The notes under the pieces: model-generated
Database searches by the model: none
Seen by the model: the letters and a program-made list of their open reading frames with translations, nothing else
Told to the model about the DNA's origin: nothing
Origin: a virus
Lineage: Duplodnaviria > Heunggongvirae > Uroviricota > Caudoviricetes
Reading direction: 5' to 3' (one strand)
DNA: 35,624 nucleotides
Virus record (IMG/VR): IMGVR_UViG_2778261544_000009
Position numbers and translations under genes: made by a program
Shown: positions 595 to 34,871 of the stretch, in pieces
Numbering within the stretch: the stretch's first letter is position 1
Layout of the letters: each line of letters begins with the position of its first letter

Positions 595-728
595 TTATCC
601 TTGTGTAGATAAAAATCACCAAAGAAAGAGATTGAAGCTCTTTACTTTTCTTTTGTAGTGATCAAATATTTATCTGTAGAGATTATCCGGCGGTGTTATC
701 CGCGCAGATAACTTTTAAGGATAAACGA
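595..728. promoter_or_regulatory. Divergent early promoter/operator region between repressor and ner
   Basis: 134-bp AT-rich gap between divergent genes. It holds repeated TTATC/GATAA half-sites and a 6-bp inverted repeat GTTATC-N6-GATAAC at 695-712, just upstream of the ner RBS. Confidence 0.5.
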
Positions 729-965
729 ATGATGTCTATAAATGAAGTTGTAAAACAGGACTGGCACCCGGCACATGTTGTCGCTGCGGTGCATGTGAAA
801 GGCTTTACTTTGCGTTCGCTATCAGTTGAAGCAGGTTTAAACAAGGATTCTTTAAAGAATGCCTTGTACCGCAAATGCCCTAAGTATGAGCGCATTATTG
901 CTGATGCTATCGGTGTGGCTCCGGAGGAGATCTGGCCCAGCCGCTACGTTCGTAAGGTGGCGTAA
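729..965 (+). CDS. ner: Ner-like DNA-binding early regulator
   Basis: Small ORF directly upstream of the transposase; motif ...IIADAIGVAPEEIWPSRY... matches the Ner family C-terminus. Start chosen at the ATG at 729, preceded by AAGGA. Confidence 0.75.
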   Translation: MMSINEVVKQDWHPAHVVAAVHVKGFTLRSLSVEAGLNKDSLKNALYRKCPKYERIIADAIGVAPEEIWPSRYVRKVA

Positions 966-967
966 AA

Positions 968-3055
968 ATGTTTGTGTCTGTCAACGAACTCGTGGGGCTG
1001 CCTGGTATGCCGGGAAGTGCGCAAGGTGTGAGGTACACTATAAAAAAATTGGCCTCATCAGAGCATTTTCGACGCAAACGAGCAGGTACAAAAGCCATTG
1101 AGTACCACATTGATTGTCTGCCGGAAGCGACTCAAAAGGCGCTGCGTGAACGTTATGTGGAACAACTGGTAGCTACGGAGCACAACGTTTCCGAAGTTCA
1201 GGTCGTTACCAGGAAGGCGCGCAATCCTGATGCTGTCCAGGCAATCGAAGCATATCGCGGTTCGCCACAACTGATGGAAGAACGCCTGAATGCACTGACC
1301 GAAAATCAGCGTCGGGTATCTGAAGCAAGGGCTGCGCTGGTGGTGGAAGTGCTGAAGCTGGAAAGCGACGGTAATCTCGGGCGGCTGAAAGCCATTAACT
1401 ATCTTGTCGAAAAAGCCCGTAAAGGTGAACTACCGGAACGCCTGCAACAGGCCGCAGTTAACGCCAATGCAAAACGTGGCGCTAATCGCACCATCAGTCG
1501 TGACCCGCTTTATCAGTGGGTGCTGAAGTACAACCAGTCACTGAACGCCGCAGAACGGCTGCTGTTACTGGCACCAGGAAAACGCGACGAAATAAAACCG
1601 GAACAAATTAGCTGGCTACCTGAGTTTCTGGCGCAGTATCGCCAGGTGAATGGCAGACCTATGTCTGAAGCCTACGAGGATTTTGTCGCAGAATGGCAGC
1701 GTCGCCATGCGGACGAACCGTACATGCTGGAGGTGATGCCTTCTTACGATGTGGTTCGTTATGCCATGAAGAAATTGCCGGAAGTGGTGAAACAAAAAGG
1801 ACGCGTTACCGGCAGTGAATACCGTCAGCTTGAAGGATTCACCCGTCGCGACTGGACAGCTATGCCGGTGAATTATGTGTGGATTGGTGACGGTCACGGT
1901 ATGAAGCTGAAATGTGCGCATCCGATCCACGGGCGTCCATTCTCACCGGAAGTCACATTTGTGATCGACGGTGGAACACGGTTTGTTGTTGGCTGGAGTC
2001 TTGACCTTGCCGAGAACGTGTTCGCCGTTGCCGGTGCGATACAGCACGGCATTCGCAACCACGGAAAACCGTTTCTGTATTACTCGGATAATGGTTCTGG
2101 TGAAACGGCTGACATGCTGGACAAAGAGGTCGTAGGTATTCTGCCCCGCCTGGGGATTAAACACCCTACCGGTATTGCCGGTAATCCACAGGGGCGCGGC
2201 ATTATTGAACGCCTGAACCGGACACTGCCGATGCGTATAGCCAGGAGGTATCGCACCTATTTTGGCAAGGGTGCTGACCGGGAGTCGTTGCGTGTACTTA
2301 ACCGTGATCTGCGTTCAGCGTTTAACGCCATGCAACAGGACAAGCCTCTGAACGACCGCCAGAAAGCTGCAATGCGCGAGCTACCATCGTGGGCAGAGCT
2401 TATTGAGGCTATTCGTGAAGGCGTGGAATGGTACAACAACCGCCCGCATTCTGAGCTGCCGATGAAACCGAACGGGCGGCATTACAGCCCGGCAGAGTTC
2501 AGAAAAAAACGCCTGGCAGAAGAAGACACCGAAATTGAGTGGCTGAGTGATCTTGAGCTGCGTGACATGTTCCGCCCGATGGTGGAACGCCCGGTAAGAC
2601 GGTGCGAAATTCAGTGGCTGAACAATATTTACTACGCGCCGGAGTTGCGTGACGAACACGGTCGCAAAGTGCTTATCAGTTATGACATTCATGACGCCGA
2701 GCGAATTACGGTACGTCGCAAGGACGGTAGCTTTATCTGTGAGGCGATATGGAACGGCAATAAACGCGCAGCCTTTGCTGTCAGTGCTGAATATCACAAA
2801 CAACAGCAGCGTATTAAAGGAATGCGCAAACGTGCTGAGGAAAAAATTCGTGATGCTGAGGATGAAGGCATTCAGATTCTGGAGCACAAACAGACTGAAC
2901 CCTGGCTGGATAATGTTTATCGCCCGGTTGGTAATACGGTAACCATCCAGCAACAGGATTATGAGGAGGATTACGACGAAGATTATGAACGCGATTTCAG
3001 GCTGGGTTTGCAGAAACTTGCAGCCATACAGGAACAGGATGATCCGCTGGCCTGA
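968..3055 (+). CDS. A: DDE transposase A (MuA-like)
   Basis: 695 aa; N-terminal ELVGLPGMPGSAQGV winged-helix-like motif, central VWIGDGHG catalytic block, acidic C-terminus. Followed immediately by the B ATPase. Confidence 0.93.
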   Translation: MFVSVNELVGLPGMPGSAQGVRYTIKKLASSEHFRRKRAGTKAIEYHIDCLPEATQKALRERYVEQLVATEHNVSEVQVVTRKARNPDAVQAIEAYRGSPQLMEERLNALTENQRRVSEARAALVVEVLKLESDGNLGRLKAINYLVEKARKGELPERLQQAAVNANAKRGANRTISRDPLYQWVLKYNQSLNAAERLLLLAPGKRDEIKPEQISWLPEFLAQYRQVNGRPMSEAYEDFVAEWQRRHADEPYMLEVMPSYDVVRYAMKKLPEVVKQKGRVTGSEYRQLEGFTRRDWTAMPVNYVWIGDGHGMKLKCAHPIHGRPFSPEVTFVIDGGTRFVVGWSLDLAENVFAVAGAIQHGIRNHGKPFLYYSDNGSGETADMLDKEVVGILPRLGIKHPTGIAGNPQGRGIIERLNRTLPMRIARRYRTYFGKGADRESLRVLNRDLRSAFNAMQQDKPLNDRQKAAMRELPSWAELIEAIREGVEWYNNRPHSELPMKPNGRHYSPAEFRKKRLAEEDTEIEWLSDLELRDMFRPMVERPVRRCEIQWLNNIYYAPELRDEHGRKVLISYDIHDAERITVRRKDGSFICEAIWNGNKRAAFAVSAEYHKQQQRIKGMRKRAEEKIRDAEDEGIQILEHKQTEPWLDNVYRPVGNTVTIQQQDYEEDYDEDYERDFRLGLQKLAAIQEQDDPLA

Positions 3056-3129: not shown

Positions 3130-4062
3130 ATGACCGATATTAATGATGTTTTCAATACGATTAATGCGCTGATTTCCGACGGCGTAAAAACTCAGGGTGT
3201 TATTGCTAAAGAAGCGGGCGTGTCAGAGGCCACGCTATCGGAACTTCGCAAAGGTCGTTACAAAGGCGATACCGAAGGGATGCATGACAAATTACAGATG
3301 TGGCATCAGGACTGGCTGAAAAGCCAGGAATTGCCAGGCGCGCCGCAACTTGTGGAAACACAAACCCTCCGTGATTTGCGCGAGCTGTTTCAGACCGTGC
3401 GTGTTATGGGATGTATCAGCGTTCTGGTTGGTGTGCCGGGTGTTGGTAAAACCGTTGCGGCCCGCGAATACAGTAACCGTGTATCTAATACCTGGATGGT
3501 GACCCTTTCCCCTGCACACTCAACAGTGACCGAGTGTCTGCTGGAACTGGCAGACGCACTGGGAATTGATAACCCGCAAAGGAGTAAAGGCGCGCTGACC
3601 CGTGCCATTCGCAAAAAACTGAACGGCACACGCGGTCTGGTGATTGTGGATGAAGCTGACCATCTGAGCATGGACGGGCTGGAGCAGTTGCGCGCCATTC
3701 AGGATGCAACAGGCGTCGGGATGGTATTGATTGGTAACCCAAGCCAGTTAGCCAAAGCCACACACCGGGGAACGGATGACCTTGCGCGTTTGTTCAGCCG
3801 TTTCGCCAGAACAAAACAACTGCGTAAAGCCAAAAAGGCTGATGTGGTGGCAATTGCGAAAGCCTGGGGCATTGAGGGTGAAGATGAATTATCACTCATG
3901 CAGAGCATAGCGGAAAAACCAGGTGCATTACGTGTATTAACTCATACGTTGAATCAGGCATGGCTGGCAGCCAGCGGGAAAGGTGTTCCGTTATCCAAAG
4001 GCTACATTAAAGCGGCTTTTAAAGAGGTTTACAGCAACCCGAAGTTACTGAACTGGTGGTAA
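3130..4062 (+). CDS. B: Transposition ATPase B (MuB-like AAA+)
   Basis: 310 aa with Walker A GVPGVGKT and Walker B VIVDEADHL; sits directly after the transposase. Confidence 0.9.
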   Translation: MTDINDVFNTINALISDGVKTQGVIAKEAGVSEATLSELRKGRYKGDTEGMHDKLQMWHQDWLKSQELPGAPQLVETQTLRDLRELFQTVRVMGCISVLVGVPGVGKTVAAREYSNRVSNTWMVTLSPAHSTVTECLLELADALGIDNPQRSKGALTRAIRKKLNGTRGLVIVDEADHLSMDGLEQLRAIQDATGVGMVLIGNPSQLAKATHRGTDDLARLFSRFARTKQLRKAKKADVVAIAKAWGIEGEDELSLMQSIAEKPGALRVLTHTLNQAWLAASGKGVPLSKGYIKAAFKEVYSNPKLLNWW

Positions 4063-5351: not shown

Positions 5352-5876
5352 ATGGCTAAACCAGCAAAACGAATCAAGAGTGCCGCAGCAGCTTATGTTC
5401 CTCAATCCCGCGATGCCGTGGTGTGTGATATTCGCCGGATTGGTGACCTGCAACGCGAAGCGGCACGACTTGAAACGGAAATGAATGACGCTATCGCTGA
5501 GATTACAGAGAAATACGCCTCACAGATTGCGCCCCTTAAAACCAGTATTGAAACCCTTTCAAAAGGCGTTCAGGGATGGTGTGAAGCGAACCGCGACGAA
5601 CTGACGAACGGCGGCAAGGTGAAGACGGCAAACCTGGTAACCGGCGATGTGTCATGGCGTCAGCGCCCACCATCGGTAAGTATTCGCGGTGTGGATGCGG
5701 TGATGGAAACGCTGGAGCGTCTTGGCCTGCAACGCTTTATTCGCACGAAACAGGAAATCAACAAGGAAGCGATTTTACTGGAACCGAAAGCGGTCGCAGG
5801 TGTTGCCGGAATTACAGTTAAATCGGGAATTGAAGATTTTTCTATTATTCCGTTTGAACAGGAAGCCGGTATTTAA
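5352..5876 (+). CDS. gam: Host-nuclease inhibitor Gam
   Basis: 174 aa starting MAKPAKRIKSAAAAYVPQ... and ending ...FSIIPFEQEAGI, which matches my recollection of Mu Gam. Confidence 0.85.
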   Translation: MAKPAKRIKSAAAAYVPQSRDAVVCDIRRIGDLQREAARLETEMNDAIAEITEKYASQIAPLKTSIETLSKGVQGWCEANRDELTNGGKVKTANLVTGDVSWRQRPPSVSIRGVDAVMETLERLGLQRFIRTKQEINKEAILLEPKAVAGVAGITVKSGIEDFSIIPFEQEAGI

Positions 5877-6201: not shown

Positions 6202-6376
6202 GTCAATTGGCTTTGTCCTGCTGGTTGGCACCTGTGGGAATGATGCCTGTGATGCTATCCCGGTAACAGAAAAAATCTGGCCCACCGAGCAGGCATGTAT
6301 GCAGGTGATGGAGCGCATACAAAAACATTATCCCAATGAAATCTTTTATTGCGAGGAGGTATTAAGAAATGAATAA
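6191..6376 (+). CDS. Small Cys-rich putative secreted protein or lipoprotein
   Basis: GGAG RBS followed by a GTG start at 6191; hydrophobic N-terminus IGFVLLVGTC followed by a Cys-rich stretch. The lipobox match is imperfect. Confidence 0.35.
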   Translation: MVIKSIGFVLLVGTCGNDACDAIPVTEKIWPTEQACMQVMERIQKHYPNEIFYCEEVLRNE

Positions 6377-6758
6377 CGCAGAGAAAAATGAAATTAAATC
6401 CACATCCGCCAGCACCAGAAAACATCTTTATGATTTTTATGTCGCTTATAACCAGTGGTTAAAAAACGGAGCGCAAGAAACGGAAGGGGAAGGGTTTATT
6501 CGGGGAGTCGGATTATGCGCCAATGTTTATGACTATTTTGAATCAATCGGAGCAGACAGCGAGGCTGCGCTAGAACAATTACATGCGGATTTTGTCGCGA
6601 GTGGGCTGGATGAATCCCTGCCATTTAATGTAGATAACGTGCACTACCATGATGAATGCCTGCATGACAGATGCCACCTGAATTCTGCTCGTGTGGCATG
6701 GGTCGAAAAACACTGCATTAAGGAGATGGGGCAAAATGAGTCGCACATCCCTGATTAA
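6369..6758 (+). CDS. Hypothetical early protein (129 aa)
   Basis: Excellent RBS GAGGAGG 9 nt upstream of the ATG. Confidence 0.6.
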   Translation: MNNAEKNEIKSTSASTRKHLYDFYVAYNQWLKNGAQETEGEGFIRGVGLCANVYDYFESIGADSEAALEQLHADFVASGLDESLPFNVDNVHYHDECLHDRCHLNSARVAWVEKHCIKEMGQNESHIPD

Positions 6759-7287
6759 ATTAATTCATGTTGCCCGCCGGGAGTTGCACCTCGACGATGA
6801 CACTTACCGCGCCTTTCTGGTGCAGTGCACGGGCAAAACCAGTTGCCGCGAGCTGTCCGTTGCACAACTGGAACAAGTGCTCGATGCCATGAAAGAGCGC
6901 GGTTTTAAAAAGCAGAAAAAACATCCCCGCCGTCGCTTTAAGGGGCATGTCACACCGCGCGAGAAGATTTATAAAATCTGGCAGCAGATGTTTCTTGATG
7001 GTTTCGTCTCCGATATCAGCGACGCCGCGCTGGACAAATACGTTGAGCGCCTGACAGCCAGACGTAATGGCGGACAGGGTGTTTCCACGCTGGCCTGGTG
7101 TCACGGGGAATCGTTGCAGGTTGTGCTCGAAACGCTCAAACAGTGGCATATGCGCTGCATCCGGGAAGCCTTTGCCCGACATGGTGTGCCTTTACCTGTG
7201 AGCGAAACCGGGCGGGAGCTGCGCGGCTATGATGCACTGACCAGTGCATATGCCCGCGCACGAAACAGCGGGAGAATTGCTGTATGA
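6736..7287 (+). CDS. gemA: GemA-like protein (Mu gp16 family)
   Basis: Sequence MSRTSLIKLIHVARRELHLDDDTYRA... is Mu gp16-family-like and the gene sits directly before mor. Start taken at the internal ATG at 6736. Confidence 0.65.
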   Translation: MSRTSLIKLIHVARRELHLDDDTYRAFLVQCTGKTSCRELSVAQLEQVLDAMKERGFKKQKKHPRRRFKGHVTPREKIYKIWQQMFLDGFVSDISDAALDKYVERLTARRNGGQGVSTLAWCHGESLQVVLETLKQWHMRCIREAFARHGVPLPVSETGRELRGYDALTSAYARARNSGRIAV

Positions 7288-7733
7288 AACAGATGAAAGA
7301 GCAGGATTTATTCGAAGACCTTCGGGACGACAGCGTTCTGGAATATCTTCATGATTACCAGGAAAACACCGCTTATCCGGCGTTAATTTCTGAACTGAAC
7401 GCACTGCTGCGTAAAGAGCTGGCCCGGATTGGCGCAGACCCTGCCCATTCCCTTGAGCTGGTTGTGGCGATTTGTCGCCATATCGGCGGGATGCAGGTTT
7501 ATGTTCCGAGGGGGAATATTCTGGAGAATCTTGTCCGGGATATGCGTATCTGGCGTGATTTTAACGGCCATAATATTCCTGAACTGGTTCAGCGTTACGG
7601 AGTGACGTATAAAACCGTCTACAAGGCCATCAAACGGATGCGACGTCTGGAGCGTAACAAATACCAGCCGGATTTGTTTTACCACTCCCCGAACCTGCCT
7701 CACCCCGTTCGTCGTCCGCCACTACGCCCTTAA
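7284..7733 (+). CDS. mor: Mor-family middle/late transcription activator
   Basis: Mor/C-family C-terminal HTH block ...RIWRDFNGHNIPELVQRYGVTYKTVYKAIKRMRRLERNKYQ...; last gene of the early operon. Confidence 0.85.
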   Translation: MKQMKEQDLFEDLRDDSVLEYLHDYQENTAYPALISELNALLRKELARIGADPAHSLELVVAICRHIGGMQVYVPRGNILENLVRDMRIWRDFNGHNIPELVQRYGVTYKTVYKAIKRMRRLERNKYQPDLFYHSPNLPHPVRRPPLRP

Positions 7734-7739
7734 TCAATG

Positions 7740-7763
7740 AAGCCGGTAAATCCGGCTTTTTTT
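7740..7763 (+). terminator. Intrinsic terminator at the end of the early operon
   Basis: Stem AGCCGG / loop TAAAT / CCGGCT followed by seven T, beginning 7 nt after the mor stop codon. Confidence 0.75.
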
Positions 7764-7818
7764 ATGCCTCCGGCACCATGAAGCAGACCACGTTTAAATC
7801 TGCTTCACAGGTGCTTTT

Positions 7819-8415
7819 ATGGAAAATCAAAAATTCTCCCCGGCCTTTGAACATGCGCTGAATTTTATTCTGCGTCCCGATATCGAAGGCGTTTATGTCA
7901 ATGACCCCACTGACCGTGGCGGCGAAACCAAATACGGCATTTCTGACCGCCGCGACGGTGTGATTGACGGCAAAACCGATGTCAACGGCGACGGCAAACC
8001 GGATACCCGCATTAAGGATTTAACCCGCGAACAGGTTGCGCAGATTTACTGGCGCGATTACTGGCTACCTGCCGGATGTGACCAGTGGCCTGATGGCGTG
8101 GCGATGTTTGTGTTCGATGCGGCGGTTCAGCATGGCGTTAAAAAAGCCATCAGAATTTTGCAGGAAGCCGCTGATGTGGATGCTGACGGCATCATCGGCC
8201 CACGTACCCGTAAGGCTGTGAGTCTGTCCACCCCGGACTGGCTGCTGGCCCGCTGCATTGTCCGTCGTTCCCGCTTTTATGCCGACATCATCAAATCAAA
8301 ACCCGCCCAGGGCAAATACCTGAACGGCTGGTTTAACCGCATGGAAAAACTGACCGACGCCTGTCTGGAAATCATCGATACCCCTCTGGGCATCATGTCC
8401 GCCACGCGGGGGTGA
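7819..8415 (+). CDS. Endolysin, GH108-like N-terminal domain with C-terminal peptidoglycan-binding domain
   Basis: N-terminal FILRPDIEGVYVNDPTDRGGETKYGIS resembles the GH108 signature and the C-terminus ...DADGIIGPRTRKAV... is PG-binding-like. No N-terminal hydrophobic SAR segment. Confidence 0.75.
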   Translation: MENQKFSPAFEHALNFILRPDIEGVYVNDPTDRGGETKYGISDRRDGVIDGKTDVNGDGKPDTRIKDLTREQVAQIYWRDYWLPAGCDQWPDGVAMFVFDAAVQHGVKKAIRILQEAADVDADGIIGPRTRKAVSLSTPDWLLARCIVRRSRFYADIIKSKPAQGKYLNGWFNRMEKLTDACLEIIDTPLGIMSATRG

Positions 8416-8416
8416 T

Positions 8417-8644
8417 ATGGGCAAAGGCTGGGATGCCTCACTGAAAGCCGGGCGGCGTGACCGCCTGCGTCAGGAGGTTTTACACCGCATGGCCGGAGGT
8501 CCGCCCCCGAAACCGCTGGACTATACCGGCCATGACGGCACACACGCCAGCTACTACATGCGTGGCTGGAACTCCGTGGATACACGGGACATTTTCTGGC
8601 AGTGCCAGAAGTACAAGGAAAAACTCAATGCACAGAATGAATAG
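8417..8644 (+). CDS. Hypothetical basic hydrophilic protein, lysis-cassette member
   Basis: 75-aa ORF whose ATG lies 2 nt after the endolysin stop codon, suggesting translational coupling. Confidence 0.45.
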   Translation: MGKGWDASLKAGRRDRLRQEVLHRMAGGPPPKPLDYTGHDGTHASYYMRGWNSVDTRDIFWQCQKYKEKLNAQNE

Positions 8645-9038
8645 TCTTTTTGTTCGCGTTATTTACTCCCGCTTTATGTTGTGCCAGTGGTCGTTTCTGG
8701 GGCTGTCGGCAGTACTTTTTCTGGCGAGCTGTTTTGCCGGATGGCGGGCGTTTGCGGTCATGGTGCTGGCATACGGGGCGACACTCTGCCTGATTCACAG
8801 TTTCCAGCTGGGCAACGTACCTTATCGCCTGCAACCCAAAAGGCGTTTCCGGGCCGCCTCCCTTCGAATTGTCGTGTGGTCATGGGTGGTCTGGGCCGTT
8901 GGTTTTTTCATGCTGACATTCGGCATTCTTTATCTGAAGGAGCCTTATCAGCTGGCGTTCTGGCTGGGCGGTATTTTTTGCGCGGCACTTTATAAACATC
9001 AGCGCCGTTTTCATAAGGGGGATTCATGGATCCGTTAA
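8628..9038 (+). CDS. Four-TM membrane protein (holin/antiholin candidate)
   Basis: AAGGA RBS then ATG at 8628; four hydrophobic segments in about 136 aa. Confidence 0.5.
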   Translation: MHRMNSLFVRVIYSRFMLCQWSFLGLSAVLFLASCFAGWRAFAVMVLAYGATLCLIHSFQLGNVPYRLQPKRRFRAASLRIVVWSWVVWAVGFFMLTFGILYLKEPYQLAFWLGGIFCAALYKHQRRFHKGDSWIR

Positions 9039-9634
9039 CCCTTTCAGGCATCGCCTCTGTTCTGCTGAAAGCCGGGCCGGGGCTGATTCGTTCCGTCGGG
9101 CGCTGGTTTGGTGGCAGCACATCTGCCGCCGCTGACTCGGTGGCCGGTATGGTGGAAAGCGTCCGGGAAAGCCTTCCCGTTGCTGAACAGCAACGCATTC
9201 TGGAACAAAAACTGGGGATGCTGTCACCGGAGCAACTGGTGCAACTGGAAACCCTGAAAATTCAGCTGCAACAGCTGGAGGTGGAACGGCAGAAGCTGGT
9301 GCTGGCTGACCAGCAGGCCGCACACCACGAACAGCAGGAAACCATCCGCAATGGTGACAACGCCACGGACAGCTATGTGCGACAGACACGCCCGCTGCTG
9401 GCCCGCCTTTCCTGTTACAGCAGTCTGGCCTATGTGCTGTTGCTCTCCTGCGGCCAGATTGCCGGAGCCATTGCGGGTGCCAGAGGTATCACGCTGCATA
9501 TGCCATCACCGGACTGGGATATCACGCTGATGTTGCTTACCCCGGCGCTGGGCTATCTCGGCGTAAGAACCCTTGACGGCTTTGCCCGTTACAGCAAATC
9601 AAGCCGTCACAAAATGTCTGTGGGGCCGAAATGA
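9026..9634 (+). CDS. Holin-like membrane protein with central coiled coil
   Basis: AAGGGGG RBS; Q/L-rich heptad region followed by C-terminal hydrophobic segments. It resembles the prophage '3TM holin' architecture; family assignment is unverified. Confidence 0.5.
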   Translation: MDPLTLSGIASVLLKAGPGLIRSVGRWFGGSTSAAADSVAGMVESVRESLPVAEQQRILEQKLGMLSPEQLVQLETLKIQLQQLEVERQKLVLADQQAAHHEQQETIRNGDNATDSYVRQTRPLLARLSCYSSLAYVLLLSCGQIAGAIAGARGITLHMPSPDWDITLMLLTPALGYLGVRTLDGFARYSKSSRHKMSVGPK

Positions 9635-9858
9635 CCGACGAAATCGACCGCATCAGTGAAGTGGTTCTGAACGAACGTCAGAGCGTCGTTAACGCCTGGC
9701 AGACGCGGACAAAAGAAGTGCCCCGCAGTCGGGGCTTCTGCAATGACTGCGGGAACGTTATTCCGGCACAGCGCCTTGCGGCGCTGCCGGATGTGGTGAC
9801 CTGTATTGACTGTCAGCAGATGCGGGAACGCAGGAGGAAAACGTGTCCTGGGAAATGA
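9631..9858 (+). CDS. TraR/DksA-family C4 zinc-finger protein
   Basis: 75 aa with CNDCGNVIPAQR...CIDCQ, a four-Cys zinc-finger pattern typical of TraR/DksA-like phage proteins. Confidence 0.7.
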   Translation: MTDEIDRISEVVLNERQSVVNAWQTRTKEVPRSRGFCNDCGNVIPAQRLAALPDVVTCIDCQQMRERRRKTCPGK

Positions 9859-10148
9859 TCAGAGCCAACTGGCCCATTCTGTGGGCATTGCTGATGACAG
9901 GAATAAACCTGCTTCAGCTGATTCTGGCGAAAACCTACGTCAAACGTGAAGAGTTTGATTCACTCCGTTCCCGCGTGTCGGTGATGGAAAGCCAGGTACA
10001 CCATTTACCCGACCGTGATGAGTTCCACCGCCTGCAACTGGATATCAGCAACCTGCGGGGAGAAATCAAAGAACTGGGGCCATCCATCCGCCAGGTATCC
10101 CGCATCAGCGATTTGTTATTAGAGAACGAGTTAAAGGAAAAAAAATAA
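9843..10148 (+). CDS. Small membrane-anchored coiled-coil protein (releasin/spanin-like candidate)
   Basis: N-terminal TM segment WPILWALLMTGINLLQLIL followed by a predicted coiled coil. Confidence 0.5.
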   Translation: MSWEMIRANWPILWALLMTGINLLQLILAKTYVKREEFDSLRSRVSVMESQVHHLPDRDEFHRLQLDISNLRGEIKELGPSIRQVSRISDLLLENELKEKK

Positions 10149-10441
10149 TGGCGATGAAAGAGATCCTCACTGAAGACCGTCGTCTTGTGTTGCTGCGTTC
10201 CCTGCTGGACTGTGGCGACAGCGCGAATGAATCCGTGTTGCAGACCTGCCTTCAGGCCTACGGTCATAAGGTATCCCGTGATGTGGTGCGCACCCAGCTT
10301 GCATGGCTGCGCGAGCAGGGGCTGGTTCGTCTGTCTGATGTGGGCGGCTGTTACGTGGCTGAAATCACCGGCAGCGGTGAGGATGTGGCAAACGGCCTGT
10401 CCAGCGTTCCGGGCGTTAAAAAACCCCGTGCGAGGGACTGA
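10148..10441 (+). CDS. Hypothetical protein (97 aa)
   Basis: ORF in the operon with its start overlapping the upstream stop codon. Confidence 0.5.
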   Translation: MAMKEILTEDRRLVLLRSLLDCGDSANESVLQTCLQAYGHKVSRDVVRTQLAWLREQGLVRLSDVGGCYVAEITGSGEDVANGLSSVPGVKKPRARD

Positions 10442-10443
10442 GC

Positions 10444-10743
10444 ATGGCCCGAAAACTGAAGCCGTTAAGTCGCGGAGAACGGGCCGTCGTGCGGCAACTG
10501 GCGTACTGTCTTGTGCTGGCAGATATCGAGCAAAACGCCATTGTCCGTGCATACGAACAACAGACCGGAAAGCCCTGGAACCCGGATGCACCGGATACCC
10601 CCATGAAACGTGCCCTGCGTTCATCACCGGCATGTGCGCGGCTGTGGAAGCTGCTGGGTAAGGATATCCGCTCCGTTCGCGAAGAAATATACGCCGGTCT
10701 GAAAACACCGGGAACTGAAGACGGGGGCCGTCGTGAACCGTAA
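10444..10743 (+). CDS. Hypothetical protein (99 aa)
   Basis: ORF in the operon. Confidence 0.45.
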   Translation: MARKLKPLSRGERAVVRQLAYCLVLADIEQNAIVRAYEQQTGKPWNPDAPDTPMKRALRSSPACARLWKLLGKDIRSVREEIYAGLKTPGTEDGGRREP

Positions 10744-10880
10744 AAAGAATCCGATAAGTAAAGCGTCCCGTGATGAACTTCGCCGTCTGGCGCACAACCT
10801 GACATGGCGTGAAATCCAGAGTGGCGCGCTGAAATCTGCATACGAAAGTTTACAGCGTAGTGAGCAACAGGAGGGCACTC

Positions 10881-11462
10881 ATGGAAAATGAACAACGCCC
10901 CACCCGTGGCCGTCTTTCCAAAGTGGATTTACTCCCGGACAGCATCCGGGAGCAGTTGCATCAGATGCTGCGGGAAAAGCGGCACACGCAGGAAGAAATC
11001 CGCGAAGCCATCAATGCCCTGATTGATGAACACAACCTGCCGGAAGAGATGCAGTTAAGCCGGACGGGCTTAAACCGCTACGCCATCCGCATGGAAAAAG
11101 TCGGGGCAAAAATCCGCGCCTCCCGCGAAATGGCCGAAGTCTGGGCGGCAAAGCTGGGGTCCGCGCCGACGTCAGACGTCGGCAAGCTGCTGATGGAGTT
11201 TGTAAAAACGCTGGCCTTTGAAACGTCCATGTCGATGGCAGAAGACGACAAACCTGTTGCACCGAAGGCGCTGGGCCAACTGGCGCTGGTTGCCCAGCGT
11301 CTGGAAGCGGCAGCCATGACCAGCCATAAACGCGAGAAAGCGATCCGCGATGCGTTTGCGCAGGAGATGGCAGAGAAAACCGAAGAACTGGTCAGAACGG
11401 GCGGTCTGTCAGGTGGTGCGGCTGACACCATCAAACGTGAAATTCTGGGGATTAGCGCATGA
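10881..11462 (+). CDS. Terminase small-subunit-like protein (Mu gp27 position)
   Basis: AGGAGGG RBS then ATG at 10881 (the track ORF begins at a GTG at 10860); sits immediately upstream of the large terminase. Confidence 0.6.
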   Translation: MENEQRPTRGRLSKVDLLPDSIREQLHQMLREKRHTQEEIREAINALIDEHNLPEEMQLSRTGLNRYAIRMEKVGAKIRASREMAEVWAAKLGSAPTSDVGKLLMEFVKTLAFETSMSMAEDDKPVAPKALGQLALVAQRLEAAAMTSHKREKAIRDAFAQEMAEKTEELVRTGGLSGGAADTIKREILGISA

Positions 11463-12994
11463 CACAGATGAATACATTCAGTGAATACGATGTATTACTG
11501 CCGTATCAGAAACGCTGGGTGGCGGATGATGCCGACCTGAAAATCGCCGAGAAATCCCGCCGTACCGGTTTAACCTGGGCTGAAGCGGCAGATGCGGCAC
11601 TGACGGCATCACTGAAGAAGGAAGACGGCGGGCGCGATCACTTTTATATCGGTTCGAATAAGGAGATGGCCCGCGAATTTATCGACGCCGTGGCAATGTG
11701 GGCGAAAGCGTTTAATGCGGCAGCGGAAGAAATCTGCGAGGAAGTGATCACCGACGAAGACAAGGATATTCTGACGTTCGTCGTGTACTTCGCCAGCGGT
11801 TTTAAGGTCAAGGCACTGTCCAGCAACCCGAGCAACATTCGCGGGATGCAGGGGAATGTCACCATCGACGAGGCCGCGTTCCATGAAAAACTGGACGAGC
11901 TGCTGAAGGCGGTGCTGCCGCTGAAAACATGGGGCGGCAAAATTCGCCTTATTTCCACCCATGACGGCGTGGACAACCTGTTTAACCAGCTGATTCAGGA
12001 AAGCCGTGCGGGCAAAAAAGATTACAGCATTCACACCATCACGCTGGATGACGCCTGCAATGACGGGCTGTACCGGCGTATCTGTCAGGTGCGCGGCATG
12101 GTGTGGTCACCGGAAGCCGAGGCGGAATGGAAAGAAGGCCTGCTGCGAAATACCGCTACCCGCGAAGACGCACTGGAGGAATATTACTGCGTCCCGAAAA
12201 ACGGCGGCGGCACGTATATCCCCCGCTCACTGCGTGAACGTGCGGCCCGTGGCACCGGGAAAGTGTTGCGCTTTACCGGCACACCGGAATTTAACGCACT
12301 GACGGAAAGCCAGCGCCGGGCAGATATCCGGGAATGGCTGGAAACGGTGGTGCGCCCTGAACTGGAAAAACTCCCGAAGAACCTGCGCCACTGTCTGGGG
12401 GAAGACTTTGCGCGTTCGGGTGACCTGACCGTACTGGCCCCTGTGACGGTGAACGATGACACCACCCGCGAGGTGCCGTTCCTGGTTGAGCTTGCCAATG
12501 TGCCGTTTAAACAGCAGGAGCAGGTGCTTTTCTGGCTTTGCGATCGTCTGCCCCGTCGCGACGGCATCAAAATGGATGCGCGGGGGAATGGTCAGTATCT
12601 GGCAGAACAGGCTGCAGAGCGGTACGGCGATGAAGTGGAACAGGTGATGCTGTCCGTGGCGTTTTACCGCGAAAACATGCCCCGTTTCCGTGCGGCGTTT
12701 GAAGATGATGAGTTGATCCTTCCGAAGCATGAAGACGTGATCAATGACCTCGGGGCCATTCAGTTACTGCGTGGCGTTCCCGGCATTGATGATTCACGAA
12801 CCAAAGGCAGCGACGGTCACAAACGTCACGGCGACGCCGCTGTAGCCATTTTCCTGGGCTTCCTTGCCAGCAAGGATGACTGCCACCGTTACGAACTGCA
12901 CCGTCTGAACCGCCCGGCGAAACCAGAAGAACGCAACGCGCGCCGCCAGATGAAGCTGACACGCGGCCTGAAAAATGAGGGAGGTTTACTGTGA
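11459..12994 (+). CDS. Terminase large subunit
   Basis: 511 aa, preceding the portal gene, with acidic ATPase/nuclease-like motifs; Mu gp28-like by position and size. Confidence 0.8.
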   Translation: MTQMNTFSEYDVLLPYQKRWVADDADLKIAEKSRRTGLTWAEAADAALTASLKKEDGGRDHFYIGSNKEMAREFIDAVAMWAKAFNAAAEEICEEVITDEDKDILTFVVYFASGFKVKALSSNPSNIRGMQGNVTIDEAAFHEKLDELLKAVLPLKTWGGKIRLISTHDGVDNLFNQLIQESRAGKKDYSIHTITLDDACNDGLYRRICQVRGMVWSPEAEAEWKEGLLRNTATREDALEEYYCVPKNGGGTYIPRSLRERAARGTGKVLRFTGTPEFNALTESQRRADIREWLETVVRPELEKLPKNLRHCLGEDFARSGDLTVLAPVTVNDDTTREVPFLVELANVPFKQQEQVLFWLCDRLPRRDGIKMDARGNGQYLAEQAAERYGDEVEQVMLSVAFYRENMPRFRAAFEDDELILPKHEDVINDLGAIQLLRGVPGIDDSRTKGSDGHKRHGDAAVAIFLGFLASKDDCHRYELHRLNRPAKPEERNARRQMKLTRGLKNEGGLL

Positions 12995-15319: not shown

Positions 15320-15533
15320 CCCTCCCGCCGCAAATCCCCCTGAAACGCATCAGAAACGCGTTTTTTTATTCTGATGGCGTGAATGTGCATTCTGACTTTT
15401 TTGAAGGCGCTGTGGCGTTTTTGAAGGGGTTTTGAAGGGGTATTCTTCCCGTTTTCAGTGAAGCCGGTAAATCCGGCTTTTTTTCTGCCTTCCGCATACT
15501 GACCGTCGGTAACCCCAAACGACGGAGACTGAC
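15320..15533. promoter_or_regulatory. Structured F-I intergenic region: hairpins, 3x TTTTGAAGG direct repeats, terminator-like element
   Basis: Direct repeat GAAACGC twice (15342-15360); inverted repeat CATCAGAA/TTCTGATG (15348-15377); TTTTGAAGG at 15399, 15419 and 15430; hairpin plus T-run at 15460-15484; inverted repeat CCGTCG/CGACGG at 15503-15525. Confidence 0.6.
15460..15484 (+). terminator. Terminator-like hairpin, identical to the one at 7740-7763
   Basis: Same AGCCGG-TAAAT-CCGGCT stem-loop followed by a T-run. Confidence 0.65.
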
Positions 15534-16496
15534 ATGCAACCGGAACTGCTGGCGCTGTGTTTTTCCCTGCCAGAACCCATCACTGAGCTGACACCCGCTC
15601 AACTGCCGGAATGGCTTGAACTCGTTCCTGCGGGTGAGTTCACCGGGCGTGATGGCCGGACGTGGATTAACCGCAATCCGCATGAGGTGGTTGCCCGCTC
15701 GTCCGACATCAAAATTCCGGTGGACATTGAACATGCCACCGAAATTAAAGGCCCGCGTGGTGAAGATGCTCCGGCGTATGGCTGGGTGGAAGAACTGCGG
15801 GTGACGGATGGCGGCACCATTGAAGGCCGTGTTGTCTGGAACGCGTCCGCCCGGTGGGTGCTGAGTGAGCGCCGCTACCGCTATTACAGCCCGGCGTTTT
15901 TCCATGACGCGGAGGGTGTGGTGACGCGCCTGTCCAGCGTCGGGCTGACCAACAAACCTAACCTGGATTTTCCTGCACTGAATACGGAGAAAAACCCGAT
16001 GACAGTACCTGTGCAAATCACCGGCCTGCTTGGGCTGGCTGAATCTGCCACGGTGGACGATACCGTGGCCGCCATTAAACAACTTCAGGAGAACGAACAG
16101 GTGGCGCTGAACCGCGCACAGACACCTGACCTGACGAAGTTTGTGCCGGTTGAAACCCACAATCTGGCACTGAATCGTGCCGAAACCGCAGAACAACGCC
16201 TTCAGCAACTGGAAGAGAAGGAAGCCGAGGCGCTTGTGGATGCGGCCATCGAGGCCGGAAAAGTGGCCCCGGCAAACCGTGACATGTTCCTTGCCACCTG
16301 CCGCACGGAAGAAGGCCGCAAACAGTTTGCGGAGTACACCAGAGGTGCACAGCCGCTGGTGAACAACGACAAGCCCAGCCAGGGCAAGGATAAACCCGCG
16401 CAGACACTGACCGACGCCGAACTGGCGATGTGCCGCAGCATGGGTATTACCGGGGAAGAGTTCCTCGCCGCTAAACCTAAACAGGAGAATAACTGA
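15534..16496 (+). CDS. Head protease/scaffold (Mu I-like)
   Basis: 320 aa immediately upstream of the major head gene; GGAG RBS. Confidence 0.75.
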   Translation: MQPELLALCFSLPEPITELTPAQLPEWLELVPAGEFTGRDGRTWINRNPHEVVARSSDIKIPVDIEHATEIKGPRGEDAPAYGWVEELRVTDGGTIEGRVVWNASARWVLSERRYRYYSPAFFHDAEGVVTRLSSVGLTNKPNLDFPALNTEKNPMTVPVQITGLLGLAESATVDDTVAAIKQLQENEQVALNRAQTPDLTKFVPVETHNLALNRAETAEQRLQQLEEKEAEALVDAAIEAGKVAPANRDMFLATCRTEEGRKQFAEYTRGAQPLVNNDKPSQGKDKPAQTLTDAELAMCRSMGITGEEFLAAKPKQENN

Positions 16497-24990: not shown

Positions 24991-26060
24991 TGGAATCCGT
25001 GATTCTTACCGTTGACGGCAAACTGTGGGAAGGCTGGACGGAAATGTCCATCAGCCGTTCCCTGAAGGCGATTGCCGGTGAGTTTGATCTCAGTGTGACA
25101 ACCCGCTGGTCAGCGGCGGCACCGCGCGTGATTCGTGAGGGGCAACCCTGCACGGTCAGGCTGGGCGCGGATACCGTGCTGACGGGGTATATTGATGATT
25201 TTATCCCCAGCTATGACGCAGATAACGTGGAGATCCGCGTCATGGGGCGCGACAAAACCGGTGACCTGGTGGACTGCTCTGTGGTGCATTCATCCGGGAA
25301 ATGGAAAGGCGTGCGGCTTGAACAGGTGGCGGCTGATGTCTGCCGCCCGTTCGGGATAACCGTCATCACGGAAACCCCGACCGGGGAGGCGTTTGCGTCC
25401 GTTGTTCTGGAACAGGGTGAAACGGGCTTTGAACTGCTCGACCGGCTGGCAAAACAGCGCGGCGTTCTGCTGACGTCTGACGGCGCAGGTAACCTGATTA
25501 TCACCCGCGCCTCTTCCGTTCGCGCGGGTGTGTCACTGGTGCTGGGGAAAAATATCCTCGCTGCCCGTGGGCGCTTCAGCTGGCGGGAGCGTAACAGCCA
25601 GTACATCATCAAGGGCACCACCAGTGCCGGTGGCAAACTGTGGGACAGCCAACCTGCCTCGATGGTGGGTGGTCGCCAGTACATCACCGAAGACCCGGAA
25701 ATTAACCGTTACCGCCCGCGCATTCTGGTCAATGAAGACAGCCTGACCGTGGGCGGGGCCAGCATTCGCGGGGAATGGTACAAAGCCCGGATGCTGGGGG
25801 AATCCCGCACGACGGAAATCACGGTGGCAGGCTGGCGCGAACAGGGCGACAGCGGCCCGCTGTGGCAGACCAACCGCCTTGTCGATATCGACGACAGCAT
25901 TCAGAACCTGAAAACCACCTGGCTGATATCCGGGGTGACCTGGACGGATGGCGCACAGGGGCGGATGACGGTTCTGGCGCTGGTTCCACCTGAATCACTG
26001 GACATGCCGGAAATGAAAGCGAAGACGAAGAAAACAAAGGCGGTGGCCACATGGGATTAA
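24990..26060 (+). CDS. Baseplate/tail protein (Mu P-like)
   Basis: 356 aa in the baseplate block. Confidence 0.6.
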   Translation: MESVILTVDGKLWEGWTEMSISRSLKAIAGEFDLSVTTRWSAAAPRVIREGQPCTVRLGADTVLTGYIDDFIPSYDADNVEIRVMGRDKTGDLVDCSVVHSSGKWKGVRLEQVAADVCRPFGITVITETPTGEAFASVVLEQGETGFELLDRLAKQRGVLLTSDGAGNLIITRASSVRAGVSLVLGKNILAARGRFSWRERNSQYIIKGTTSAGGKLWDSQPASMVGGRQYITEDPEINRYRPRILVNEDSLTVGGASIRGEWYKARMLGESRTTEITVAGWREQGDSGPLWQTNRLVDIDDSIQNLKTTWLISGVTWTDGAQGRMTVLALVPPESLDMPEMKAKTKKTKAVATWD

Positions 26061-26587
26061 ACGCCATTGCCCGCCGTCTGCGGCTGATGGTTGACCGTGC
26101 CATTGTCCGCATGGTGTCTGACAGTCTGGAGCGGCAGAACCTGCAAATCCAGACGCTGGCAGATGCCACTGATGACGATGTGGAACGCTTCCAGAATTAC
26201 GGGTTTACTTCCGTTCCGCCGGAAGGTTCAGAAGCCATCGTGCTGGCCGTGGGCGGACGGCGTGACGGGCTGGTTGCCATCGCGGTGGAGGATAAGCGAT
26301 GTCGCCCTAAAGGCTTGTCCACCGGCGACGTCCGGCTGTATCACCAGGACGGCAAATCACATATCACGTTAAGGAAAGGCGGAATTATTGAAATCACAGG
26401 AGAACAATTAAACTTTTCAGGGAAAACGGTAAATCTCACCGCCGACGAATTGCTGAATATTATCGGTAAACAAATGAAATTCGTCGGTCCCTGTGAATTT
26501 ACTGAAGATGTCAGAATCAACGGTAAATCATTCATCGAACACATTCATAAGGACGGCGACAATGAGAATACATCACCGCCCGTATGA
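26051..26587 (+). CDS. Baseplate assembly/spike protein (V-like)
   Basis: 178 aa in the baseplate block. Confidence 0.55.
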   Translation: MGLNAIARRLRLMVDRAIVRMVSDSLERQNLQIQTLADATDDDVERFQNYGFTSVPPEGSEAIVLAVGGRRDGLVAIAVEDKRCRPKGLSTGDVRLYHQDGKSHITLRKGGIIEITGEQLNFSGKTVNLTADELLNIIGKQMKFVGPCEFTEDVRINGKSFIEHIHKDGDNENTSPPV

Positions 26588-30215: not shown

Positions 30216-33200
30216 AGGTGTGATTAAAACGCCCACGGGAGAACCGCTGGGCGGCGCAACAATTACACTGACCTCCCTGCACAACCGTGCAGGGATTCTG
30301 AAAAGTGTTTTCAGCCATGTCACCACACAGAGCGGGGAGTACGACTTCCCCGTTCTGCCGGGTGTGTACAGCGTTCGCCTGACACAAAGCACACAGCGCC
30401 TTTCAGAAATCGGTGTCATCCGCGTTTATGAGGATTCAGCGGACGGTTCGCTGAATGATTTTCTGGGCGCAACCGATATTGACCTGCGCCCGGAAGCCCT
30501 GAAGAAATTCGAGGAACTGGCGCAACAGGCGCAGCAAAGCGCAGAAAAAGCAGGAGAGCACGCCACCGCTGCTGAACAGGCCCGCCAGGATACAGAAACG
30601 CTCGCCTGGGAAATACAGCAGGATGCAGAAGAAATTGCGGGTAATGTGCAGAAAGCTGAAGAGCTGGCCTCTGAAACAAACCAGAATGCCGCCCGCGCAG
30701 AGCAGGCTGTCAAGGATGCTGACGCGATAGTCCAGAAAGCGGTCGATAAACTTGCTGATGCTGCAACGCTGACCGGCGAGGCAAAAGCCAGCGCCGAAGC
30801 GGCAGCAAAAAGCGAACAGAACTCGAAACAGCACAGGGACGAGGCGCAACGGATAGTTGATGACCTGAAGGGAAGCAATGCCTCCACGACGGAAAAAGGC
30901 CTGGTGCAACTCTGTAGTGATACAGACAACGACAGCGAAGAACTGGCAGCCACACCAAAGGCTGTCAAAACCGTCATGGACGAGACGAAAACAAAAGCTC
31001 CACTGGACAGCCCGGTGTTCACCGGCACGCCAACCACACCAACCCCACCGGATGATGCAGTCGGTCTGGAAACCGCGAACGCGGCATTTGTTCGCAAACT
31101 GCTCGCCGCACTGGTTGACTCGTCACCGGAAGCCCTGGACACACTGAATGAGCTGGCAGCGGCGCTGGGCAATGACCCGGAGTTCGCGACAACAATCATG
31201 AACGCGCTGGCGGGTAAACAACCACTCAGTGACGTGTTAACCGCAATCAGTAATCTGGAAGAACGGGCAGATAATCTTCTGTGCTTTAATCAGGACGGGA
31301 ATGCTTCACTGTCTCCGCTGTCAGAAAAAGCCCGGTCACTGCTGGCACAGGCCACAGTGGAAGCCATGCGCAATGAGCTTGAGCTGAAAAGCGCGGCGGT
31401 AAAGGACATTCAGACAGACCTTTACGACAGCTCGGAAGGCCGTGTTGCGCTGCCTGGTGCATTTGGTTACGGAATGACGGACGCCGGAGCGCGTTCAATT
31501 ATTGCCAGCGATATGGCGACTGTAGCCAGAACTGCGCACAACCTGCACCCGGGACGGTATTACACCTTTTCCACACAAACGGAAGAGACGACCGGAATAA
31601 CAGAAATTATCTGGCTGGATAATGGCTGGGGCGACAAAACAAGCCAGACAGCAACAAAGCTGGTTCTGTTTTTTGGAAAAGACGGACGGATTCTTATGAC
31701 CGTTCGTGGCGATAATATCTCCGCCCCGGTCACCTGGACGAATCTGACGCTACAACTGGGCAATGCAGCACAGAAGGATGCACAGGAGAATATTTACGAC
31801 CGCACCGAAGGCCGTCTGGCGATTCCCGGCATGTTTGGATTCGGGAAAGTATTTTCCAGCGGCGACAGGACCGAATTTAAAACAGAGGCCGATTTTCTCC
31901 GCTGGGTAAAAACAGCAAAACCCGGTCGTTATGTCGTTTATGGCGCAGATAAAGTGATTCCCGGAGTCCTGTTCAGCGGCACCGTTGAAATTATCTGGCC
32001 GGAACCTCAAACCAACTCCAATCCGGTATATGTGGCCAAAATCATTATTTTTTACGGTATTAACGGCCATATTTATTACAATCGCTACTGGACTACCGGA
32101 GATGGTTATCTGGTTGGCTGGGAAAACCTGAAAGTCAACGAGGCTTCACTCCGGGCACTGATTGAAACCCGCGCGCCACTGAACAGCCCGGCACTGACCG
32201 GAACGCCGTCCACGCCAACACCACCAGATGATGCAGCAGGTAATGAAATAGCCAATGCGGAGTTTGTCCGCAAACTGCTTGCCGCGCTGGTTGGCTCATC
32301 ACCGGAAGCCCTGGACACGCTGAACGAACTGGCGGCGGCACTGGGCAATGACCCGAACTTTGCGACAACAGTCACTAATGCACTGGCAGGTAAACAGCCG
32401 CTTAATGACGTGTTAACGGCTGTCAGCCAGATAACACCGGAAGAAAACACACTGCCTTATTTCAGTGAAGAGGGCCGGATTTTACTGGCGCAGCTGTCAG
32501 AAAAAGCCCGCGCATTACTGGCACTGGACACACCTGAGGCCATGCGCACGGAGCTTGAACTGAAAGCGGCTGCGACGATGGAGCCCCAGAGCGATATCCG
32601 CGACCGCACACCAGGCAGACTGGCACTGTCCGGCATGTACGGATTCGGTCAGGCATTTGCCAGCACCGACGCCCTGACATTTACCGGACAGGCTGATTTT
32701 GCTGAATGGCTGAAAGAGGCCACCCCGGGGCGTTATGCGGTCAGTATTGCGGACTCTTCCACGCTGCTGGCTGGCACCACGAAATTTAACGGCATCATTG
32801 ATGTGATGTGGTCGCCCTTTGATAACGATGAATCGGACACAACGCGTAAATTCAAAACGTTGCTGTGTTTTAACCAGTATTACGAAGGCGAACACAGCAT
32901 TCATCGCCTGACTTACCGCTGGAGTGGAAACAACTGGAATGCAACAGTAAGCCCTGTCATTTACGACGGCGATTCGCTGGCGTTCTTACTCTCCCGGACA
33001 GCAGGCTCAGGCTCATATTACAAATATCCGGCAGTTGGTGTGCCGGTTATGGCGGCATATCAGGGGGAAAGTTTTGGTGCTGATGTGTCTCTGGGACTCG
33101 GTGATATTGTGCCGGGTTCCCGTCTTGGCCCTCTGGCTATGAGTGCTTCAGTTAGCGATACAGGGACATACGTATCCACACCGCAAGTGGCAATTGGTGG

Positions 33201-33896: not shown

Positions 33897-34019
33897 ATAA
33901 TCAGTTTGTATAGTTTATGACGATCGATAACATCATATCGATCGTCGGTTTGCATCGGTTGTGATTAAATACCCCCAGCCCTCCGGGCGGTCATGTCTGG
34001 TTATTACACAGGGGGAATC
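33897..34019. promoter_or_regulatory. mom-operon regulatory region with GATC-containing inverted repeat
   Basis: Perfect 11-bp inverted repeat GACGATCGATA-N6-TATCGATCGTC at 33919-33946 carrying two GATC sites; CCCCC...GGGGG elements nearer the com start. Confidence 0.6.
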
Positions 34020-34205
34020 ATGGACTCTGTTCGCTGTAAAAACTGCAATAAATTACTGTTTAAAGGAGGTTTTAAGCATATAGAAATTAAATGCCCTCGC
34101 TGTAAACGTTACATTGTCATATCGAATGCCAAAGAGCATCCCACGGAGCTGTATTGTGGGAAAAGAGAAGAAATCACGCATTCTGACAAAACCCTGCGTT
34201 ATTGA
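34020..34205 (+). CDS. com: Com zinc-finger translational activator of mom
   Basis: 61 aa, CKNCNKLLF...CPRCKR zinc finger ending ...[10 protein letters not shown]; AGGGGGA RBS. An alternative ATG lies at 33993. Confidence 0.85.
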
Positions 34206-34851
34206 GTATGAAGGCCGGATTGTCGGCTATGGTTCAAAGGAGCTGCGCGTTGAAACCATATCCTGCTGGCTGGCCCGCACAATCATTCAGACAAAACACT
34301 ATTCCCGCCGTTTTGTGAATAACTCCTACCTGCATTTGGGCGTATTCAGCGGACGTGATCTGGTTGGTGTTCTTCAGTGGGGATATGCCCTTAACCCCAG
34401 CTCAGGGCGTCGTGTTGTGCTGGAAACGGATAACCGGGGCTATATGGAACTGAACCGCATGTGGCTACACGACGACATGCCCCGCAATTCTGAATCACGG
34501 GCCATCAGCTACGCGCTGAAAACCATCAGGTTACTGTACCCGTCAGTGGAGTGGGTTCAGTCCTTTGCAGACGAACGCTGCGGACGTGCTGGCATGGTAT
34601 ATCAGGCGTCGAATTTTGATTTTATAGGCAGCCACGAAAGCACGTTCTACGAACTGGACGGCGAGTGGTATCACGAGATAACGATGAACGCGATTAAGCG
34701 CGGAGGACAACGAGGCGAGTATTTACGGGCTAATAAGGAGCGGGCCGTGGTACACAAATTTAATCAGTATCGCTACATCAGATTCCTGAACAAGCGCGCA
34801 AAAAAGCGCCTAAACACTAAGCTATTCAGGGTTCAGCCATACCCGAAGTGA
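34126..34851 (+). CDS. mom: Mom DNA-modification protein
   Basis: Overlaps the 3' end of com, as in Mu. Start uncertain: TTG at 34114, ATG at 34126, or GTG at 34156. Confidence 0.8.
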
Positions 34852-34871
34852 TCCCACTTAATGAATAAAAA

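Follow-up and report, generated by a model that had tools for sequence, protein, structure and literature searches.

Gene content of the prophage

The window (the whole 35.6-kb stretch of DNA that was analyzed) is a nearly complete Mu-like prophage of Escherichia coli, running from the repressor (1-594) through com-mom (34020-34851) (Table 1). As both of these lie inside the window, hardly any prophage DNA is left outside. The gene that follows mor encodes an endolysin, as judged from its Pfam matches (1e-23 for GH108 and 3e-17 for PG_binding_3) and its match to a PHROG endolysin family (1.7e-54), and its product shares 74% identity with a protein encoded in the middle operon of Yersinia phage vB_YpM_5. 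Small membrane proteins, proteins of unknown function, a TraR/DksA zinc-finger protein, DUF2730, and gp27 are encoded after the endolysin. Gene I (Pfam Mu-like_Pro, 2e-43) is followed by the major head gene T, tail genes, and tail fiber genes. The tail fiber gene of 1034 aa contains a 254-nt direct repeat (30997-31250 and 32173-32426; 81% identity), and, in contrast to Mu, the window holds neither gin nor an invertible segment.

Among 5,426 complete E. coli genomes, 45 cover at least 80% of the segment from 6300 to 11500. In strain XJ34, the one relative inspected, the NCBI pipeline annotates a single Mor-family gene in the matching segment.

Table 1. Coordinates of genes and regulatory features in the 35.6-kb window
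Feature	Position	Strand	Remarks
Repressor	1-594	minus	
ner	693-965		
Transposase A	968-3055		
B	3130-4062		
gam	5352-5876		
gemA	6691-7287		
mor	7284-7733	+	149 aa; sole Mor/C-family activator gene of the prophage
P1, predicted Pm-type promoter and intrinsic terminator	7736-7779	+	Before the lysis/packaging/portal operon
GH108/PG_binding_3 endolysin	7819-8415	+	First gene of the operon assigned to P1
TraR/DksA-type zinc-finger protein	9631-9858		In the predicted first late operon
gp26-like winged-helix protein	10148-10441		In the predicted first late operon
Terminase	11459-12994		Followed by portal and F
P2, predicted Pm-type promoter and terminator cassette	15457-15500	+	Upstream of head protease gene I
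Gene I, Mu-like head protease/scaffold	15534-16496	+	First gene of the operon assigned to P2
gp45-like baseplate gene	26051-26587		Contains the P3 candidate
P3 candidate, intragenic Pm-type promoter	26419-26463	+	Inside the gp45-like baseplate gene
Region upstream of com-mom	33897-34019	+	Two Dam GATC sites conserved with Mu; outside the shared element
com	34020-34205		Pfam match
mom	34114-34851		Pfam match

A single activator of the Mor/C family

The product of mor matches the Pfam Mor profile (PF08765) over positions 3-107 of 107 (E = 1.1e-29; 103 bits against a cutoff of 24.9) and a PHROG late transcriptional activator family (2.3e-40). The profile search that the original prediction had named as its check was run on all six frames, with every stop-to-stop segment of at least 20 aa searched by phmmer (queries: Mu Mor, Mu C, and the window protein) and by a family HMM built from 124 diverse members drawn from a search of 1.84 billion proteins, both with --max. 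The sole Mor/C match was the segment 7233-7730 (E = 5e-45). Neither method found a second Mor/C gene in any frame of the window, the next best hit (E = 1.7) being noise, and on Mu, used as a positive control, the family HMM recovered both C (3e-45) and Mor (3e-41). The claim that no other open reading frame (ORF) in the window belongs to this family is thus borne out. The gene order given for Mu was also correct, since the annotated record reads mor, Pm overlapping a terminator, gp18 to gp20, C, Plys, and lys. The three-tier cascade of Muvirus has two paralogous Mor/C genes with C in the middle operon; in the window there is one such ORF.

The window protein is 62% identical to Mu Mor and 29% identical to Mu C. 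The linker residues of the family (G68, G69, Y73, P75, and G77, in the pattern GG..Y.P.G) are invariant across a 26-sequence alignment, and HTH_28/HTH_23 submatches place a C-terminal helix-turn-helix at residues 94-121. In the helix-turn-helix region, identity is 71% to Mor and 39% to C. The DNA-contact positions of this motif are known from cryo-EM structures (bioRxiv 10.1101/2025.05.02.651988), and at those where Mor and C differ, the window residues T108, T111, and K114 are those of Mor (T105, T108, and K111), whereas C has S110, Q113, and Q116. Both identity and contact residues, as read from the sequence, assign the protein to the Mor subtype and not to the C subtype.

The C terminus departs from Mu Mor. 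Residues 128-132 read QPDLF, where Mu Mor carries QPSLL, and a Pro/Arg-rich tail of 17 aa follows (nt 7665-7733 = residues 128-149). QPDLF is the C-terminal clamp-binding motif of Mu C according to a 2026 PNAS study and is absent from Mu Mor (PMC12867686). Only the nearest homologues, from E. coli and Salmonella (P0001-P0012), show this tail. Elsewhere in the family, a metagenomic representative library contains proteins of 200-280 aa with two Mor/C domains in tandem (P0087, P0089, P0104, P0107, P0115, and others), which could be covalent dimers, given the tetrameric binding reported.

Two Pm-type cassettes, after mor and before gene I

An exact 24-nt repeat (7740-7763 = 15461-15484; expected number in shuffled sequences, 0) lies within a 49-nt repeat of 86% identity and differs by a single base from the hairpin inside the Mu middle promoter Pm. 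In Mu, the Mor dyad spans -51 to -36, with 5-bp repeats flanking a GC-rich hexamer and a center at -43.5 (PMC4287176, PMC4390567), and the wild-type bases at -57 to -52 are GTAAAC (PMC4390567, Table 3). From these bases and the published dyad position, we deduced the Mu Mor site to be AGTAA-AGCCGG-TTAAT, followed after 22 nt by the -10 hexamer TATCCT. P1 consists of the homologous site AATGA-AGCCGG-TAAAT (7736-7751), 22 nt, and the -10 hexamer CACCAT (7774-7779), with a predicted +1 at ~7787; P2 consists of AGTGA-AGCCGG-TAAAT (15457-15472), 22 nt, and CATACT (15495-15500), with a predicted +1 at ~15508. The spacing from site to -10 is therefore identical to that of Mu Pm, the -10 hexamers keep A2 and T6, and there is no -35 hexamer, CCGGCT agreeing with TTGACA at two of six positions. 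With a matrix built from nine distinct sites, P2 (25.0 bits) and P1 (24.3 bits) ranked first and second in the window. The -10 of P1 is weak, and its site has a dyad symmetry of just 3/5.

Both cassettes also have the features of intrinsic terminators. The P1 hairpin (7739-7759) has an 8-bp stem with five GC pairs and is joined to a run of seven Ts (7757-7763); P2 likewise has a hairpin and T7, and the predicted fold at 7739-7763 and 15460-15484 is -12.6 kcal/mol (z = -3.9 at P1). The mor gene is thus followed by a terminator and then directly by the endolysin gene, as the original prediction had it. Since hairpin and T-run alone make a good terminator, part of their conservation serves that role. 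Taken together, the Mor site, spacing, and -10 hexamers shared with Mu suggest that P1 and P2 are Pm-type promoters fused to a terminator, as in Mu.

P2 occupies the place of the C-dependent promoter PI of Mu. The PI, Plys, PP, and Pmom promoters of Mu carry a C box (TTAT-N5-6-ATAA, centered near -43.5) that is unrelated to the Mor box. No C box within one mismatch was found before the GH108 gene, gene I, or com, and matches elsewhere in the window were at chance level, none of them at promoters.

Other repeats surround these cassettes. Inverted repeats with arms of 6-9 bp (7779-7807 and 15503-15525) begin at or just past the -10 and straddle the predicted +1; repeats of this kind are found at corresponding places in L005-L014, L021, and Mu, that is, in nearly every locus, with sequences that differ between P1 and P2 and among species. 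Given the geometry of Mu, their 5' arm would fall outside the transcript. Just upstream of the P2 box, at 15397-15440, are three direct repeats of TTTT(T)GAAGG(C/G)G, and in the two Vibrio loci the corresponding intergenic region between F/G and I, which in Mu contains the central strong gyrase site, has three TTTAAACG repeats.

A candidate site inside the baseplate gene

A third probable site, which the original prediction did not include, starts at 26419. P3 combines AGGGA-AAACGG-TAAAT (26419-26434) with a 23-nt spacer, 1 nt longer than in Mu, and the -10 hexamer TATTAT (26458-26463), and it has no hairpin. It is the third-best matrix match in the window (18.6 bits), a score equaled in just 1 of 200 random windows (p ~0.005). 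The homologous site of Klebsiella phage L021, at 27153, is likewise the third match there.

Constraint on P3 was assessed in 20 homologues of the baseplate gene from IMG/VR (59-95% nucleotide identity). Codons 123-128 have the lowest third-position entropy in the gene (0.48 versus a mean of 1.21; rank 1 of 164). In these homologues, the third base of codon 126 is invariant although the amino acid changes (T/R/S/K), and that of codon 123 is mostly A although the amino acid varies among S, R, K, T, and A. In 19 of the 20 homologues, the Val codon ends in A or T (GTA or GTT), paralleling the T[TA]AAT variation seen at the true sites. The more divergent homologues have a poor -10, and the constraint, lying in coding sequence, could have another purpose. 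On these patterns, P3 looks like an intragenic late promoter functionally akin to PP of Mu, and it would probably feed the baseplate-wedge and tail fiber genes from 26584 on.

Conservation of the arrangement in related prophages

A scan for related loci with one genome per species returned 16 loci, 10 of which share the layout of the window: Pluralibacter, Raoultella (two), Klebsiella (two), Serratia (two), Kluyvera, and Brenneria (two). These Enterobacterales loci read gemA-mor-GH108-p75-p202-TraR-DUF2730-gp27-TerL with one Mor/C ORF apiece, and nine of them continue through portal, F, I, and T, the exception (L013) stopping in TerL. Klebsiella phage Kp4866-3 has the same layout and one Mor/C ORF. 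All loci in which both regions were captured have the box just before the GH108 gene and again before gene I; the copy before I was recovered by the matched motif in nine related loci, and a near-identical copy is at the same place in L008 and L021.

This conservation bears on what the shared element does. It might be a recycled intrinsic terminator and nothing else, with late transcription coming either from the early promoter, through antitermination or read-through, or from unrecognized constitutive promoters. The strong hairpin and T7 of both window copies fit such a role, as do the compensatory stem changes in the box hairpins of L005 and L014. Conservation, however, reaches the 5' half-site beyond the stem and a -10 at a fixed distance. 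The T-run before gene I has decayed in L005, L007, L009, L010, and L014, and in all five the 16-bp site is kept with a -10-like hexamer (GACACT or CACACT) 19-20 nt away; site and spacing retained despite T-run decay form a pattern that fits a promoter, not a terminator. Moreover, mapping experiments in Mu have shown this sequence to be a Mor-dependent promoter (PMC4287176, PMC4390567), and the third site of the window is under nucleotide-level constraint although it is free of any hairpin. We therefore consider a terminator without promoter function very unlikely.

The window could also represent a defective prophage that lost gene C and whose late genes are not expressible. Such a deletion is formally conceivable, as the Muvirus relative vB_YpM_5 has GH108 and p75 genes and then C. 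The C-less layout, however, is found with intact ORFs in at least 45 complete E. coli genomes, in 10 other species, and in phage records, and the promoter of gene I is of the Pm type rather than a stranded C-type promoter. These observations leave a defective prophage as an extremely improbable explanation.

The original prediction had treated the absence of C as unusual, which it is not. A tblastn search of the phage database gave 87 Mor/C places in 73 records, most of which have a single one. The records with two Mor/C genes, among the matches listed, all belong to the Muvirus group (Mu, D108, SfMu, PhiR68_1, and the Yersinia phages), a small minority. In print, a GH108-type lys gene directly after mor, with no C, was reported in 2015 for Mannheimia phages 3927AP2 and phiMhaMu2 and Haemophilus phage SuMu, and the authors offered no mechanism and asked for experiments (PMC4553209). 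These Pasteurellaceae phages are without a typical com-mom module, whereas the window prophage has one.

More distant lineages keep the two places and use other boxes. In Vibrio prophage L018, whose single Mor is 37% identical, another dyad-like box, TAATTCRTCTTAATTT, follows mor and again precedes I, with CACAAT or CAAAAT ~21 nt away. The only Mor/C-family activator of Sp18, a prophage of E. coli O157:H7 Sakai, is C-like and is encoded directly before a lysozyme gene; here the box CTGAWATYCCGCAAARCCYGCC lies at both the lys and the I places, at the same distance from TACGCT or TATGCT. In the Thaumasiovibrio locus (L020), with a single C-like activator, we looked for a shared box and found none that was convincing. 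In Vibrio phage ZX4290 (L022), local alignment gave only CACAATCAG; the dyads TAAAT-CCAGCT-TAATT and TAATA-CGGCTC-AATTT, seen by eye at comparable distances, are suggestive only. As read from these sequences, box and activator change together across lineages, and the two-place arrangement persists. Packaging of Sp18 DNA is efficient (PMC2669165), and ZX4290 is on record as a phage with one activator and with sewage as its stated source; together, these indicate that single-activator prophages can be viable.

Two of these loci have further features. Sp18 represents another Mu-like prophage type of E. coli with a single activator, unrelated to the first; its lys and I promoters have a 22-nt box in common (L072, 21445-21515 and 29360-29408). 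The single-Mor phage vB-Vv-ZX4290 has a diversity-generating retroelement, with Avd and a reverse transcriptase, at its right end (L022, 35288-36894).

The com-mom region and the choice of late activator

The shared element had been placed in three regions; it is present after mor and before gene I, but in the third, 33897-34019, the Mor box is absent, with a best matrix score of 1.9 bits. The C box upstream of mom is degenerate (GTTGT-GATTAA-ATACC versus ATTAT-GCCCCA-ATAAC in Mu). Aligning four E. coli variants of this region with Mu brought out GATC sites and a TGTGRTTAAATA block that are conserved and gave no convincing -10/-35 or activator site for a mom promoter. Thus com-mom fits neither the Mor box nor the C box, and at least one late unit is outside the cascade that we propose; com-mom may be transcribed by read-through from upstream.

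The com-mom module and the right end (34030-34897) are 88% identical to Mu, whereas gemA-mor is ~72% identical. Together with ~115 bp of upstream region, the module is also found in other E. coli prophages, where the genes preceding it differ. This recurrence and the higher identity to Mu suggest recent module exchange.

That mom is not explained by Mor speaks for a late activator that is not homologous to Mor/C, such as a TraR/DksA-type protein, a gp26-like protein, or an unannotated early protein, with Mor switching on the first operon only, as in Mu. TraR-type proteins bind RNA polymerase, and the TraR/DksA gene recurs in every single-Mor locus, those of Vibrio and Sp18 as well as those of E. 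coli. TraR-type proteins are not site-specific activators, however, and a gp26 homologue is present also in Mu, where the late activator is C. A scan of ten ORFs between mor and the terminase genes matched no other transcription-regulator family. The promoters before gene I and after mor carry one and the same Mor box, which makes a second specificity unneeded. We consider a non-homologous activator unlikely. The original prediction had left a choice between such an activator and a single Mor-family protein driving late transcription through the shared element, and the latter is favored on sequence grounds: the element matches Mu Pm, the contact residues are of the Mor type, and every related single-Mor prophage examined has paired boxes.

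Comparison with known activator systems

The closest parallel is Mor and Pm of Mu, in which an orthologous activator (62% identity), encoded at the end of the early operon after gemA, acts at a 16-bp dyad with a GC-rich spacer that overlaps the early terminator, with no -35 and with a -10 22 nt on. Mu has a single Pm, which drives gp18-gp20 and C and nothing else, whereas in the window prophage the Pm type occurs two or three times and is predicted to drive the lysis, packaging, head, and probably tail genes. The window Mor further differs from Mu Mor in having QPDLF, as Mu C does, and the 17-aa tail. In its putative role, the window Mor resembles C of Mu, with one small Mor/C-family activator serving several -35-less late promoters located before lys, before I, and inside a tail gene; unlike Mu, the prophage has no C-type protein, and its intragenic site is in the gp45 homologue rather than in N.

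Sp18 has in common with the window a single Mor/C-family activator with the lysozyme gene next, a TraR-like gene, com-mom, and a box shared by the lys and I operons. It differs in that the activator is C-like (39% identical to Mu C), the box sequence is unrelated, and the endolysin is another one. Beyond this family, Ogr of P2 and B of 186 are single small activators for all late operons; their promoters have no -35, and the dyad is near -55. These proteins come from an unrelated zinc-finger family, and their promoter geometry is different; the logic alone is the same as for the window Mor, and we claim no homology. A literature search of incomplete coverage found no paper on Mor boxes at late promoters, so an earlier description is possible.

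The middle operons of Muvirus hold homologues of the first late genes of the window. Yersinia phage vB_YpM_5 (L002, 5021-5804) has homologues of GH108 (74%) and p75 (70%) in its middle operon, followed by C, and gp18 of Mu (Mu 9248-9466) is a p75 homologue (69%). The arrangement is consistent with insertion of C, Plys, and a SAR-endolysin into a formerly continuous operon.

A proposed two-tier lytic cascade and its implications

We propose that this prophage uses a two-tier lytic cascade, in which early genes lead to Mor and Mor leads to the late operons, so that a single activator would take the place of Mor plus C; we put the probability of this reading at about 75%. From a set of sequence features (the single Mor/C gene, boxes homologous to Mu Pm with conserved geometry, Mor-type contact residues, conservation across species, and nucleotide constraint at P3) we infer Mor binding, activation, transcript starts, and timing. 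The early transcript, with mor as its last gene, would end at the P1 hairpin. Mor would then bind 16-bp imperfect dyads with the consensus A[AG][TG]GA-A[GA][CG]CGG-T[TA]AAT, centered ~43.5 bp upstream of weak promoters without a -35, and recruit sigma-70 RNA polymerase in the manner of Mu Mor at Pm. P1 would serve the block that starts with the endolysin gene and takes in portal and F, P2 the genes for the head and proximal tail, and P3 probably those for the distal tail, and the P2 hairpin would terminate the first late transcript. Because P1 and P2 would double as terminators, each cassette would close the upstream transcript and make the next operon dependent on Mor. A C-type activator would be unnecessary, and the TraR/DksA-like and winged-helix gp26-like genes of the first late operon could contribute.

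How late expression might be delayed without a second tier is a more speculative matter. The QPDLF motif hints that coupling to replication supplies the delay. As a tentative extension that we regard as possible but doubtful, beta-clamps on replicating prophage DNA would set late timing by gating Mor, the layout with one activator and multiple Pm-type promoters would be ancestral, and the C tier of Mu would be a later insertion into a single late lysis operon, with the gp18/p75 and GH108 homologues in Muvirus middle operons as its remnants.

Mu is the textbook case of a three-step cascade, and yet most of its relatives in the phage database have a single Mor/C gene. No new kind of molecule or mechanism is revealed here; rather, the window offers a concrete wiring for the one-activator version, with Pm reused where Mu has C-type promoters. 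It would represent a natural case of regulatory rewiring through promoter replacement, and it suggests an origin for the extra tier of Mu. The sites defined here could also aid the annotation of late promoters in a prophage type carried by ~1% of complete E. coli genomes.
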